A model generated the notes under the pieces. That model did not search any database and was not told where the DNA came from. It saw nothing but the letters and a program-made list of their open reading frames with translations. Shown one piece after another: positions 2,765 through 7,429 of a stretch of DNA of 64,000 nt. Each line of letters starts with the position of its first letter. The stretch's first letter is position 1. The stretch covers positions 224,001 through 288,000 of the forward strand of contig CAVYTU010000014.1 in NCBI GenBank assembly GCA_963771465.1. Reading direction: 5' to 3'. The stretch comes from an uncultured delta proteobacterium. Its GTDB lineage: Bacteria; Desulfobacterota; Binatia; UBA9968. The translations under genes were made by a program, and so were the position numbers.

Positions 2765-3580
2765 CTAATCCGGCAGACAAATTTTGCACGGGCGCATGCC
2801 TGCTTGCCTCGCCTCTCTAGCATCGGCGAAAAACAAGATGCGCGCCCCGTCCACGCGGGCGGCGGTCCGGCAAGTGCCTCGACAATAAATTTTGGTGCCC
2901 TTGTGCCCCCAAATGACGTTGTCGGGAAGGCGCACGGCCGCATCCGCCAGGGCAAATCCTTCACTCCGCAGCAGTTGCAACTTACGCGGGATGCCGCCGC
3001 CATAACCACCGATCCTGCCGCCCGAGGCGATCACCCGGTGACAGGGAACATAGATTGGCACCGGATTGTTGTGCATGGCATTGCCGACGGCCCGCGCTCC
3101 TTTGGGCGCTCCGGCTGCGACGCCCAAAGCTTGGTAGCTGACCACAGCGCCGCGCGGGACTTCCTGGAGCTTATGCAAAACTCTCTTTTGGAACTCAGTG
3201 GACACCAGGGTGAAATCGACTTTCTGACGCAGCGCTTTTGCCTCTCCGGCCAGATAACGGCGGATCTCCTCGCTGACTTCGTTGATCGTCCGCCGATCGT
3301 CGACGAGATCCAGTTCCAATCGAAGTTTTGCAATGGTAACCGCGAGGTCGTCACCGTCAAGCAAGTAATGATTGAGCACGATGCCACGGCCGGTCATGGC
3401 CACGAGCAAGTCACCCAACGGTGATTTTAAAACGCCCACCGCCGCGTCCGGGCGCCGAACGTGTTTTAGCGCATGATCGACCCGACTGCGGGAACGACGC
3501 AACAAGGCGTCGATGCCATGTTCTTCGAATTCGCTGCCAATTGACCCGATAAGTTTTTCGATTTTCATAAACATCACCAC
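2765..3580 (-). CDS. O6-alkylguanine methyltransferase fused to C-terminal Ada-type Zn-binding domain, with N-terminal extension
   Basis: PCHRVI active site; C-terminal IYCRGTC...AGMRPCKIC matches the four-Cys Ada metal-binding pattern. Confidence 0.85.
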   Translation of the reverse strand: MVMFMKIEKLIGSIGSEFEEHGIDALLRRSRSRVDHALKHVRRPDAAVGVLKSPLGDLLVAMTGRGIVLNHYLLDGDDLAVTIAKLRLELDLVDDRRTINEVSEEIRRYLAGEAKALRQKVDFTLVSTEFQKRVLHKLQEVPRGAVVSYQALGVAAGAPKGARAVGNAMHNNPVPIYVPCHRVIASGGRIGGYGGGIPRKLQLLRSEGFALADAAVRLPDNVIWGHKGTKIYCRGTCRTAARVDGARILFFADAREARQAGMRPCKICLPD

Positions 3581-4092
3581 ATTGATTTAATTTTTCTTAT
3601 CGCCTGGGAAACATTAGCCCGCGCGCCTTGTTCCGAGCAGTCCATCGCGGCCGCTATTCCCGCGTAGTCCAGACCGGCGAAGCAGCGCAGATACAGCGCT
3701 TCGCGTTGTTTCGGCGGGAGCGCAGCGATCAGCTCGCGAATGCGCACAGCCGCGTAACCATCATTTTCACTAAATCCACGATGAGCTTTGCCGATCCTAT
3801 CCGGTTCCGAATTTTTCTTCTCAACGGCGACGATCACGCGCCCTCGGCGCGCGCCGTCACGCGCCCGATTACGACATAGGTTGACGGCGATCGTGTACAA
3901 CCAAGGCCTGATTTGGCTTTCCGGCTCAAGGCGCGGATAGGCGCGATACGCGCGCAGCCAGGTTTCCTGAAACAAGTCCGCGGCGTCGGCGCCATTGCCC
4001 GACACACGCAGCAGGTAGCGCAGAATCTCCCGTTCGTGGCGTTGCATGATCTGCTCGAAGGGAAGCGGTATTGGTAACTTCTTGGACGCCAT
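3574..4092 (-). CDS. ECF RNA polymerase sigma factor
   Basis: AADLFQETWLRAY, WLYTIAVNLCRN, LPPKQREALYL...IAAAM sigma regions 2 and 4. Confidence 0.9.
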   Translation of the reverse strand: MASKKLPIPLPFEQIMQRHEREILRYLLRVSGNGADAADLFQETWLRAYRAYPRLEPESQIRPWLYTIAVNLCRNRARDGARRGRVIVAVEKKNSEPDRIGKAHRGFSENDGYAAVRIRELIAALPPKQREALYLRCFAGLDYAGIAAAMDCSEQGARANVSQAIRKIKSMW

Positions 4093-4671: not shown

Positions 4672-6051
4672 TCATTCCAACGGTTTCAACTCGCCGAGCA
4701 TGGTCGGTATCAACTCTGTGACGGTGGGATGAATATGCATGGCGCGCTGGATCACCGTATAGGGCGCTTTGGCGTACATCACATCCAGGATCGAATGGAT
4801 CGCCTCATCGCACTCGATACCCAAGAGCGATGCTCCCAAGATCTCTTTGGTTTCGGCATCCACCAGGACTTTCATGAATCCTTGTGTCTCGCCCTTCTCC
4901 ACTGCGCGGCCAACCCGCGCCATGGGGCGTTTGCCAAGCAATGCTTTGCGCCCGGATTTTCGCACTTCCGCCTCGGTCATGCCGGCTCGCCCCAAAGGCG
5001 GATCGATGTAAAGCGCGTAGGCCGTGATGCGGTCGCTCACCCGGCGCGGGTCGCCATCCAGGAGATTGGCAGCGACGATCTCGTAGTCGTTGTAGGCCGT
5101 GTGAGTGAAAGCGCCTCGCCCATTGCAATCGCCCAGAGCGTAGATGCCGGCCACATCGGTGCTCAGTTGATCATCCACCTGGATGTAGCCACGCTGATCG
5201 ACGGTGACGCCGGCGTTTTTCAGGCCGAGGTCATCGGTGTTCGGCATGCGGCCCATGGCGAGAAGTAAATGCGAGCCAACCACAGTCTTGTCGCCGCCGC
5301 TGCAATCAACATTGACGGCCACCTTCTCGCCGCGTTTTTCCAAAGCGATGCATTGGGCGCTCAGGCGGATGTTGATGCCTTCGGCTTCGAGGATTGTGCC
5401 GATCGCTTGGGAAACATCCTCGTCTTCGCGCTGAATCAGGCGCGGCGCCATTTCGACGATGGTCACCGCGCTGCCAAAGCGGCGATACATCTGCGCAAAC
5501 TCCAAACCAATATAGCTGCCGCCGATGACGATCAGATGCTCGGGCACAAAGTCCACTTCCATCATGGTCGAGTTGTTGAAATAGCTCACCTGATCGTGGC
5601 CGGGCAGCGCCGGAGTGGCGGCGCGCCCGCCGACGTTGATAAAGATCTTCTCGGCTTCGAGGATGTCAGCTCCGACACGTACCTGATGCGCCGCTTCAAA
5701 GCGCGCGTGGCCTTGATAGATCGTCAGATTCTCCGTCCCCTTCAACCACTGCTCGACGCCTTCGTTGGAGCGGCGTACCACAGCGTCTTTGCGCGCTTTA
5801 ACTTGTTTCATGTCGACGGTGATCGAACCCCCGATCGTCACGCCATATTCGCCGGCGTGGCGCGCGACATGCGCCGCCCGCGCGCTGGCGATCAGCGTCT
5901 TGGTCGGGATGCAGCCGTTGTTGACGCAGGTGCCGCCGAAGCGCTTGCGCTCGATGATCGCCACTTTCATTTTTGCGCTGGCTAACCGGACCGCCAGCGC
6001 CGGCCCAGCCTGGCCGGTACCGATGATGATCGCGTCATAGTGAGTTGCCAT
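4672..6051 (-). CDS. FAD-dependent pyridine nucleotide-disulfide oxidoreductase (MerA/RclA/Lpd-like)
   Basis: GTGQAG, GGTCVNNGCIPTK, GGSYIGLE, HIHPTVTE; lacks the C-terminal CC pair of MerA. Confidence 0.9.
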   Translation of the reverse strand: MATHYDAIIIGTGQAGPALAVRLASAKMKVAIIERKRFGGTCVNNGCIPTKTLIASARAAHVARHAGEYGVTIGGSITVDMKQVKARKDAVVRRSNEGVEQWLKGTENLTIYQGHARFEAAHQVRVGADILEAEKIFINVGGRAATPALPGHDQVSYFNNSTMMEVDFVPEHLIVIGGSYIGLEFAQMYRRFGSAVTIVEMAPRLIQREDEDVSQAIGTILEAEGINIRLSAQCIALEKRGEKVAVNVDCSGGDKTVVGSHLLLAMGRMPNTDDLGLKNAGVTVDQRGYIQVDDQLSTDVAGIYALGDCNGRGAFTHTAYNDYEIVAANLLDGDPRRVSDRITAYALYIDPPLGRAGMTEAEVRKSGRKALLGKRPMARVGRAVEKGETQGFMKVLVDAETKEILGASLLGIECDEAIHSILDVMYAKAPYTVIQRAMHIHPTVTELIPTMLGELKPLE

Positions 6052-6091
6052 AAGATTTTCTCCCTATTCCTCGATACGGAATCAATTATCT

Positions 6092-7066
6092 TTACGAAAC
6101 ACCAGCGAAGCTAATCGCCGCTTCATTGACCGGATCTGTGCTCACCACGGGGAATTTGTGCGCCAGCCAGCCATCGATTCCGCCGGCAAGCGGCCGCACT
6201 CGGGTAATACCCTTTTTCTGCAACAACAGCGCCACCCGGGCGCTGCTCGCTTCATTGGGTCACGAACAGTAAAGTACGACGTCGCGGTCGCGGGGAATTT
6301 CCTGGTGACGCATTTCAAGCTCTTCGATCGCCATGCGAACGGCTCCCGGTATCGTCTGTGGCAACGCCGCGACGTCGAGCGGCTGGCGCAGGTCGACGAT
6401 CAACACCTCGGTTCCGGCATTGAGCGTTTCCATCAGTTCTTGTGGCGTGATTCGAGCTGTGCGCAGTCGATGGAGGAAACGGCGGCGTTGGATGTATTTC
6501 CAGGAAATGTAGGCCGCCAGACTCGCAGCAAGGACGACGCCCAACCAGCCGCCCCAGCGCAGCAAATAAGTCGCGATCCGCTCGAGTTGATCGCTGAAAG
6601 TGAACCCCAGGCCGATGAAGGTCGCGGCCCACAACAATGCGCCCAAACCATCGAACACGATAAACCGCGGCACGGACATGCGGAAGATTCCGGCAAGCGC
6701 CGGCGCCGCCGTGTTCAGACCAGGGACAAACTTCGCGATGAGCAACGCTTGAGCCCCGTGTCGCACGAAGACGCTTTCCGTGCGCCGAACACAGGAGTCG
6801 GGTTCGAGAGAAATCCGGCAGAGCAGTTTTAACACTCGGCTGCCGCGTTGGCGGCCGAGGTAATACCAAACCAGATCACCCGCGAGGGCGGCGATGATCG
6901 CTAAACCCAGAGCGAGGGTCAAATCCATCCTACCCGTGCCCGCCAGCGCGCCGGCTGCGAGCAGCAACGGGAGAGCCGGTAGCGGCAAGCCGATTTGCTC
7001 AGCCAAAACCCAGACGAAGAGCAGAACATACCCATGCTGAATCAAGAAGTGAATCGTGTCGTTCAA
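6092..7066 (-). CDS. DedA/VTT-rhodanese fusion, predicted selenoprotein (Sec at TGA 6260-6262), 324 aa
   Basis: DedA motifs (AEQIGLPLP, AKFVPG); reading through TGA gives VVLYCS-U-PNEASSARVALLLQKKGITRVRPLAGGIDGW, completing the rhodanese domain to TAA 6092. Confidence 0.85.
6220..6250 (-). promoter_or_regulatory. Candidate bacterial SECIS element
   Basis: mRNA GCGAGCAGCGCC-CGGGU-GGCGCUGUUGUUGC hairpin; apical loop 21 nt after UGA, G at loop position 2. Confidence 0.7.
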
Positions 7067-7429
7067 AATCGGCTCCTGGGATTTTTCTCCTCTAATCGGG
7101 CCAATTATTCAAGTCGGTAAGACAAAGACAAGCGTCGGTGATCATCGCATCCCGAGATGCTAGCGAATTTATCGCTGCCTGAACCGTATTAGCGAGCGCG
7201 CTTCGTCAGCTCACGGCTCGGATATGAGCGCGCACGACGGCGGAAAATAACAGAGGCAAGCGGCCTTCTCAGGAGCCGGCGTGCGGCGGCTAGTTTGATA
7301 TCGGCTGCAAACTGCGATGCTGACAGCATCACGGCGTCGTTAGGCGACGTGGGATATGACGCAAACGATTATGTGTCGTAGCATCAAGACGCTTTTCAAT
7401 GCCCAGTTGCCGGGGGAACGGCCCAAGAG

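Follow-up and report, generated by a model that had tools for sequence, protein, structure and literature searches.

The 64,000-nucleotide (nt) stretch of DNA analysed here, hereafter the window, very probably carries on its minus strand a genuine selenoprotein gene, which would encode a 324-residue, membrane-anchored fusion of a DedA domain to a rhodanese domain (DedA-rhodanese) and in which UGA269 would be decoded as selenocysteine (Sec) by means of an in-frame selenocysteine insertion sequence (SECIS). We consider it nearly certain that UGA269 itself is translated as Sec. The window corresponds to C14:224001-288000 of a metagenome-type assembly of 6.9 Mb in 19 contigs, with 6.29% contamination. 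An initial annotation, made from the sequence alone, had proposed a membrane-anchored selenoenzyme with Sec at this UGA, and that proposal is supported by the Sec machinery of the genome, by the pairing of Cys and TGA among homologues, by constraint on the hairpin that follows the codon, and by read coverage. The features of the gene on which the argument turns are as follows.

6092..7066, minus strand: full coding sequence (CDS) of the probable DedA-rhodanese selenoprotein, 324 codons plus TAA (6092-6094), translated with TGA as Sec (U)
7073..7077, minus strand: Shine-Dalgarno-like AGGAG, 6 nt upstream of the TTG, read from the sequence
7064-7066, minus strand: TTG start codon; homologues have the same start residue (MNE...)
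6605..6982, minus strand: DedA/VTT domain, residues 29-154 (PF09335, 63.7 bits against a cut-off of 33.9); helical in the model, with predicted local distance difference test (pLDDT) values mostly 84-96
6776..6823, minus strand: motif LCRISLEPDSCVRRTE, residues 82-97, with Cys83 and Cys92; Cys pair conserved without exception in the 44 aligned Sec and Cys forms
6467..6550, minus strand: last transmembrane helix, residues 173-200 (AlphaFold2 model)
6161..6448, minus strand: rhodanese domain, residues 207-302 (PF00581, 47.6 bits)
6266..6268, minus strand: Cys267 codon, the Cys of C-x-U (CxU) and candidate resolving residue; TGC or TGT in all 70 Sec and all 18 Cys forms
6260..6262, minus strand: in-frame TGA, probable Sec codon 269, where the rhodanese loop would have its catalytic Cys (70 TGA and 18 Cys codons among homologues; gapless alignment to 6mxv)
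6220..6250, minus strand: putative SECIS hairpin (fold, covariation and codon-level constraint)
6227-6245, minus strand: conserved core of the hairpin, AGCGCC/GGCGCU plus one outer pair
6234-6238, minus strand: apical loop CGGGU

Codon 269 and the hairpin that follows it

The minus-strand frame reads ...PRDRDVVLYCS, meets TGA as codon 269, and then remains open for exactly 55 codons (PNEASSARVALLL...AGVS) to the TAA at 6092-6094. In the read-through product, Pfam recognizes VTT/DedA (PF09335) over residues 29-154 (E 3e-17) and a complete rhodanese domain (PF00581) over residues 207-302, covering positions 1-101 of the 102 in the profile (E 2.4e-12). Because this product matches a near-complete Rhodanese profile, the TGA falls in the middle of the domain, at the active-site loop, where the 324-residue product reads LYC-S-U-PNE. 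Two claims of the initial annotation are thereby upheld, namely that the called open reading frame (ORF) ends mid-domain at LYCS-TGA and that 55 further open codons complete the rhodanese fold. A search of the genome with the read-through protein recovered its own locus at 99-100% with one TGA.

A structural model gives a similar picture of the active site. In an AlphaFold2 model built from a 44-sequence alignment (mean pLDDT 83.9; predicted template modelling score, pTM, 0.71), the rhodanese alpha/beta domain has a strand at 262-266, followed by C267-S268-U269 and then a helix at 270-284. Foldseek searches of the PDB returned single-domain rhodaneses such as 6mxv and 3gk5 as the best matches, with rhodanese matches at probability 1.00, and further matches to 3tp9, persulfide dioxygenase-rhodanese fusions, CoADR-RHD, and YgaP; within that PDB search the matches were to the rhodanese domain only, and none was to the DedA part. 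The best-scoring alignment, a gapless one to the rhodanese 6mxv, places U269 on the active-site Cys. Taken together, the PF00581 match, the model, and Foldseek describe a rhodanese fold with a candidate nucleophile at the start of the active-site loop. That loop, U-P-N-E-A-S, has six residues, which we take to be the length found in sulfurtransferase-type rhodaneses. Among NCBIfam models the best match is NF041203 rhodanese_LYCAU, titled 'rhodanese-related (seleno)protein', at 80.9 bits over residues 202-307.

To place codon 269 in its family, we compared 88 homologous loci, of which 8 are from the same genus (the window's own included; locus G005/L023, from an unpublished genome, was left aside) and 80 from one-genome-per-species contigs. 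The column of codon 269 holds TGA in 70 loci and TGC or TGT in the remaining 18, which is the Cys/TGA pairing that the initial annotation had offered as a check, and the motif [YF]C[SAT][UC] is present in all 88. The proportions are the reverse of what had been expected: the family was said usually to read YCxCPNE, and a Cys codon is present in only 18 of the 80 nearest species-level genomes, the other 62 having TGA. E272 is invariant in the 44 Sec and Cys forms that were aligned.

Beyond the TGA, the frame stays open for 40-69 codons in all 70 TGA forms. Identity to the window at codon positions 1, 2, and 3 is 0.70, 0.68, and 0.38 downstream of the TGA (hairpin codons excluded) and 0.71, 0.83, and 0.42 upstream of it; judged by this pattern, the region after the TGA is under protein-coding constraint. 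A maximum-likelihood tree of 87 rows, computed with the Sec/Cys column masked and the partial locus L029 omitted, has at least 6 changes between Sec and Cys, at least 5 of them forced by well-supported branches, and the Cys forms appear as small groups among the Sec forms, chiefly as one Nitrospirota group.

The nucleotides downstream of the TGA carry a second signal. TGA forms share a near-invariant hairpin, AGCGCC-CGKGY-GGCGCU, that begins 18 nt beyond the TGA and is missing in most Cys forms. Counted from the TGA, codon +6 is AGC in 67 of 70 TGA forms and codon +7 is GCC in every one, while codons +8 (CGG or CGT), +9 (GTG or GCG), and +10 (GCG) each conform in 69. The four-fold codons Pro+1 (CCC 36, CCA 19, CCG 11, CCT 4) and Gly+17 (GGA 27, GGC 27, GGG 12, GGT 4) vary freely in the same TGA forms, and at the hairpin positions the 18 Cys forms have mixed codons and partly other residues (R-M-A, Q-M-A, Q-L-A). 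At third codon positions, identity to the window reaches 0.87 within the hairpin but about 0.4 in the flanks. Over the region from +10 to +51, the 70 Sec forms have a minimum free energy (MFE) of -14.7 +/- 2.1 and the 18 Cys forms one of -9.3 +/- 2.9, with a Mann-Whitney p of 1e-8 that overstates independence since the loci are related; an upstream control region has no such difference (p 0.12). Within the 7-base-pair (bp) core, 96% of cells are paired, and 0 of 500 shuffles matched the covariation score. Compensatory changes occur at two core pairs (11 cells), as in AGU...GCA of locus L058 and in the replacement of C-G by G-C at the outer pair. The entire 6.9-Mb genome contains only two copies of the 17-nt motif, and both lie 18 nt beyond the TGA of a DedA-rhodanese gene.

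In the window's own copy, the MFE structure has 8 contiguous pairs, a 2-nt bulge, and 4 more pairs, with 21 nt between the UGA and the loop. The initial annotation had described a CGGGU loop at this spacing on a 9-bp upper stem; loop and spacing are as described, but the MFE stem has 8 contiguous pairs, and 9 bp are possible by eye if an A-U pair is added. Bacterial SECIS (bSECIS) elements are described, in the available excerpts of one review, as having a loop of 3-9 nt, a stem of 4-16 bp, a G in the first two loop positions, a spacing of 16-37 nt, and an MFE of -7.5 or below (PMC13188914). The hairpin, with a 5-nt loop, an 8-bp stem, 21-nt spacing, and an MFE of -18.1 kcal/mol, lies within all of these limits. 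It thus resembles the consensus of the bSECISearch model in loop size, stem length, loop G, spacing, and MFE, although it has no sequence resemblance to the SECIS elements of Escherichia coli fdh. A search of Rfam over 5900-7300 matched no RNA family apart from a chance microRNA (miRNA) match at E 1.6. The bacterial SECIS nature claimed for the hairpin agrees with the quoted limits and with a synonymous-site constraint found only in TGA forms, and its interpretation as a conserved recoding signal is supported by these sequence comparisons. Its pattern is so uniform that a simple pattern search could re-annotate the whole family.

Several further observations concern individual copies. The same genome holds a paralogue at C19:34180-35103, a DedA-rhodanese gene 69% identical to the one in the window, which shares the hairpin motif and has a TGA of its own at C19:34318-34320; in the tree this paralogue joins the clade of most same-genus copies, and the window's copy groups with L051 and L055. 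Locus L060 (VBKE01000122.1) is an otherwise intact Sec-type copy with an internal non-TGA stop at about codon 162, a possible pseudogene or assembly error. Loci L059, L061, L106, L096, and L122, labelled Verrucomicrobiia, Chloroflexota, Vulcanimicrobiota, or Dormiibacterota, are nearly identical to Binatia or Acidobacteriota copies, and the L061 protein is identical to that of L026. These look like mis-binned contigs or very recent transfer. Because near-identical copies carry different phylum labels, phylum counts for the family call for caution.

Decoding machinery and competing readings of the TGA

The genome is equipped to decode UGA as Sec. Profile searches found selA (614 bits), selB (359), and selD (376), all above their curated cut-offs; the three genes stand side by side at C14:197319-201637, some 28 kb away from the DedA-rhodanese gene. 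The tRNA-Sec, at C13:400992-401082, scores 76.7 bits where the cut-off is 47, and is called SeC(tca), anticodon UCA, by ARAGORN; it is the only one of 44 ARAGORN tRNAs with that anticodon, and the tRNA-Trp has CCA. Thus each component sought in response to the initial annotation, selA, selB, selD, and the tRNA-Sec (selC), is present above its cut-off. As candidates for other UGA decoders, the weaker matches to the tRNA-Sec model (L002-L008) were rejected, being ordinary tRNA-Ser and tRNA-Leu. TGA has not been reassigned in this genome, where it terminates 669 of 1688 long stop-to-stop frames.

Two side observations belong to the same searches. The selD gene (C14:200711-201637, about 22 kb before the start of the window) is itself a selenoprotein gene, with an in-frame TGA in ...VKAAGUAAKLGP.... 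A further match to the selB model at C14:13177-14205 (minus strand), translation-GTPase-like and below the cut-off at 85.7 bits, has one in-frame TGA; it may represent a further recoded gene or a pair of neighbouring genes.

Reads bear on the TGA as well. Contigs from three DNA runs, belonging to three studies, cover 6260-6262 with no listed difference there, so that the TGC or TGT that might have been expected of an error is not seen. One of these DNA runs may be the source sample, and the differences considered are those listed, with 24 lesser ones beyond them. In one RNA-library run 45% of the sampled words are present; the contigs of that run are short and were not accepted as proof of transcription in this strain or of translation past the UGA. 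A contig of a divergent strain in run X2 has 38 differences in about 800 nt, and the listed ones (compare 6145-6428 with 5977-6144) are confined almost entirely to the part encoding the C-terminal tail, the intergenic spacer, and the beginning of the following gene; the surroundings of the TGA and the hairpin are nearly free of them.

Three other readings of the TGA can be set against these data. Were it a true stop, the gene would encode a 268-residue DedA protein with a rhodanese stub, followed by 55 codons of untranslated remnant. Gene callers do end 104 of the 120 best database relatives at this point, and TGA is the commonest stop in the genome; yet a remnant would not keep 40-69 open codons, with a coding pattern, in 70 of 70 genomes from several phyla, a stop here would cut the rhodanese fold at its active-site loop, and the Cys forms are full length. 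We regard this reading as highly improbable. It is also very unlikely that UGA269 is read as Cys, Trp, or another residue, whether through near-cognate decoding or through Sec-like machinery charged with Cys. Cys does serve at position 269 in 18 of 88 relatives, and 12 of the 18 Cys-form genomes are without selD above the cut-off, so that selenium is in principle not needed. However, the tRNA-Sec is the only UGA-reading tRNA found, the tRNA-Trp having the anticodon CCA; selA, selB, and selD are present; and the hairpin, which most Cys forms lack, agrees with the SelB-dependent bSECIS model. Finally, a metagenome-type assembly in 19 contigs with some contamination invites the thought that the TGA is a sequencing or assembly error, or that a Cys-type gene has recently become a pseudogene here. 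The same TGA is nevertheless found in 70 loci of different assemblies and in a second paralogue of the same genome, and the three studies' contigs that cover it have no listed difference, which together leave this explanation with a vanishingly small probability.

Reading UGA269 as Sec must also contend with several results that count against it. As a single sequence the fold is modest: at -24 kcal/mol its z-score is -2.26, and 5 of 200 shuffles fold as well; the strong case for the hairpin comes from the comparison of loci. Only 2 of the 7 pairs have compensatory changes, and in 17 of the 64 distinct rows the outermost positions do not pair. The hairpin overlaps the conserved residues S-A-R-V-A-L, and its nucleotide conservation is therefore partly protein-driven. 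The RNA-library contigs that touch the gene are short, and the one that bridges the TGA has 6 differences in 60 nt and may belong to a relative. Two of three printed PDB alignments use a 2-residue gap to place C267, rather than U269, on the catalytic Cys, and the NF041203 match, at 80.9 bits, is under the curated cut-off of 115.

The DedA domain and a possible function

In the AlphaFold2 model the first 200 residues are all helical, and the translation has a basic stretch, KYIQRRRFLHRLRTAR, after helix 173-200 that links it to the rhodanese domain. By the positive-inside rule, the rhodanese domain and the basic loop 71-104 would face the cytoplasm.

The membrane domain departs from the characterized DedA proteins. 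In YghB, the residues E39, D51, R130, and R136 are named as essential, and the two arginines have been proposed to bind the phosphate of undecaprenyl phosphate (UndP), according to the consulted portions of one source (PMC10127716). We aligned the family with E. coli YqjA (from NC_000913.3) using MAFFT; at 22-30% identity the columns are approximate. In this alignment E39 corresponds to E23 and is kept, D51 corresponds to L32, R130 to an invariant K112, and R136 to N118, which is Ser in other family members. Thus, of the four residues essential in UptA/DedA proteins, E39 alone is retained. YqjA is 3 residues shorter in the region of C83 and C92 and has no Cys at either column. The protein shares with the E. 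coli YqjA/YghB type PF09335, 28% identity to YqjA over the membrane domain, and the E39 equivalent, but the family has in addition the rhodanese domain, one more transmembrane helix, and LCRISLEPDSCVRRTE, in which two Cys are invariant.

These comparisons also bear on whether the DedA part is an ordinary UndP flippase for which the Sec-rhodanese is only a redox-sensing regulator. The best DedA-type NCBIfam matches are indeed DedA PRK10847 and the UptA flippases, but their scores are far under the cut-offs (67 against 236, 62.9 against 300, and 58.5 against 250), E39 is the only one of the four essential residues kept, and the family has an invariant Cys pair of its own. We judge the flippase reading unlikely. 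Because essential residues are lost, the Cys motif is the family's own, and the NCBIfam DedA/UptA scores fall far below their cut-offs, the protein is, on sequence grounds, not filed here as an UndP flippase.

For the Sec-containing protein, we propose the following mechanism. UGA269 would be read by Sec-tRNA(Sec) brought by SelB, which would be recruited by the short G+C-rich hairpin that starts within the CDS 18 nt after the UGA. The product would be a 324-residue inner-membrane protein in which DedA/VTT and one further transmembrane helix anchor a probably cytoplasmic rhodanese domain, with Sec at the rhodanese catalytic position or next to it and an invariant Cys two residues before. U269 may act as the nucleophile, taking up a sulfur, selenium, or other chalcogen atom or attacking a disulfide, and C267 may then resolve the adduct as a selenenylsulfide. 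The result would be a CxU redox or chalcogen-transfer centre at the cytoplasmic face of the membrane. Its chemistry could be linked to the transport or binding carried out by the atypical DedA domain, possibly through Cys83 and Cys92, which would lie on that face too.

Redox or chalcogen chemistry, rather than plain lipid flipping, is suggested by the choice of Sec, by the missing flippase residues, and by the additional invariant Cys pair. That the protein is an enzyme of chalcogen transfer or thiol-selenol redox chemistry working in concert with transport by the DedA domain, and not a flippase regulator or something different again, we offer only tentatively, at somewhat less than an even chance. 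Counting against a functional assignment, a clustering of the flanking ORFs in the 88 loci found no neighbour gene common to the whole family. The largest real clusters are short-chain dehydrogenase/reductase (SDR)-like and nitroreductase-like genes upstream, in about 28-29 loci, and many of the other clusters are shadow ORFs of G+C-rich DNA.

A more specific version, a coupled transporter-reductase for chalcogen oxyanions or sulfane species, is a long shot. Under it, a compound of selenium or sulfur would reach the cytoplasmic side by way of a DedA domain that no longer has the phosphate-binding Arg of UndP flippases, and C83/C92 and C267-x-U269 would there capture and reduce the compound through a selenotrisulfide or selenenylsulfide relay. 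If true, this would make the protein a candidate for a dedicated step of selenium or sulfane-sulfur uptake and trafficking; excerpts of a 2026 review state that a dedicated step of this kind for selenium has not yet been identified in prokaryotes (PMC13188914). A role in selenium supply is weakened by the Cys forms, among which selD is above the cut-off in 6 of the 18 genomes searched, whose completeness is not given. Because only those 6 have selD above the cut-off, the protein's job is probably not selenium-specific, and Sec would be a catalytic upgrade.

Known relatives, annotation and gene neighbourhood

A protein database search gave 7201 relatives at E <= 0.001 among 8000 scored, of which the best 120 were listed. 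Of these 120, 104 cover 81-83% of the read-through query and 16 cover 95-96%, which bears out the claim that standard annotation shortens the product. The shortened entries are mostly exactly 268 residues long and named 'VTT domain-containing protein' or 'DedA'; in an alignment, five of them end in ...YCS and six full-length ones read YCACPNE. The family occurs in bins labelled Binatia, Acidobacteriota, Methylomirabilota/Rokubacteria, and others, and its public annotations lose the active site together with a third of the catalytic domain. Selenoproteome counts and domain statistics for soil bacteria are biased by such shortened annotations.

Among known systems, the closest in its catalytic part is NF041203 rhodanese_LYCAU ('form 3', CxU), which has the same domain, Sec position, LYC-x-U motif, and Cys/Sec pairing. 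It is, however, a stand-alone domain of 126 positions, whereas the domain described here is fused behind about 200 residues of DedA and transmembrane sequence and has S-U-PNE in its loop where NF041203 has A-U. In the parts of the selenoprotein reviews consulted, the CxU rhodanese 'form 3' figures as a predicted prokaryotic selenoprotein family. Cys-type DedA-rhodanese fusions (COG0586 with PF00581) share the whole architecture: they are 313-320 residues long, about 60-63% identical end to end, and read YCACPNE, but have Cys in place of Sec and no SECIS. Pseudomonas aeruginosa PA1209 (311 residues) is an example likened by description. The DedA-rhodanese architecture has been mentioned with no function reported and the rhodanese link called 'unclear' in the excerpts of two papers (PMC10127716, PMC12893004). 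TsoB (NF045694, 'rhodanese form 5'), as described in the portion of its source consulted, is a precedent for fusing a Sec-rhodanese to an integral membrane domain. It differs in its DsbD-like partner, its UxxxxU motif, and its two Sec residues, and the window's protein scores 14.9 bits against the TsoB cut-off of 805.

We found no description of a Sec-containing DedA-rhodanese in the literature, outside the supplementary tables of selenoproteome surveys, which could list one; nor do the consulted parts of the selenoprotein reviews mention DedA, VTT, SNARE, or PF09335. The CxU rhodanese selenoprotein type and its recoding mechanism are already known, and the DedA fusion is a new architecture, not a new principle. 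With this fusion the CxU rhodanese selenoproteins gain a membrane-anchored form, and it bears on the link between DedA and rhodanese domains.

The gene may have company in its genome. Other rhodanese matches with one in-frame TGA each lie at C3:14497-14811, C19:118167-118493, C15:1030862-1031194, and C19:19311-19448, a cluster of rhodanese genes is found at C19:118-135 kb, and rhodanese matches with exactly one in-frame TGA are also present in many relatives. The lineage may hold an unusually large set of rhodanese selenoproteins.

One neighbour of the gene was assigned by profile.

4672..6051, minus strand: gene for a flavin adenine dinucleotide (FAD)-containing pyridine-nucleotide-disulfide oxidoreductase (NF004992, 799.7 bits against a cut-off of 629), 40 nt downstream

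As a conserved redox partner this oxidoreductase was rejected, since it stands downstream in only 1 of the 88 loci, the window's own. Further downstream on the same strand, the ORFs at 1327-1827, 1781-2755, 2765-3580, and 3574-4092 (minus strand) form what, named by eye, is a DNA-alkylation repair-like cluster. Two of them have a PCHRV motif, one is glycosylase-like, and one is like a sigma factor of the extracytoplasmic function (ECF) type; the PCHRV motif we take to be that of methylated-DNA-protein-cysteine methyltransferases.

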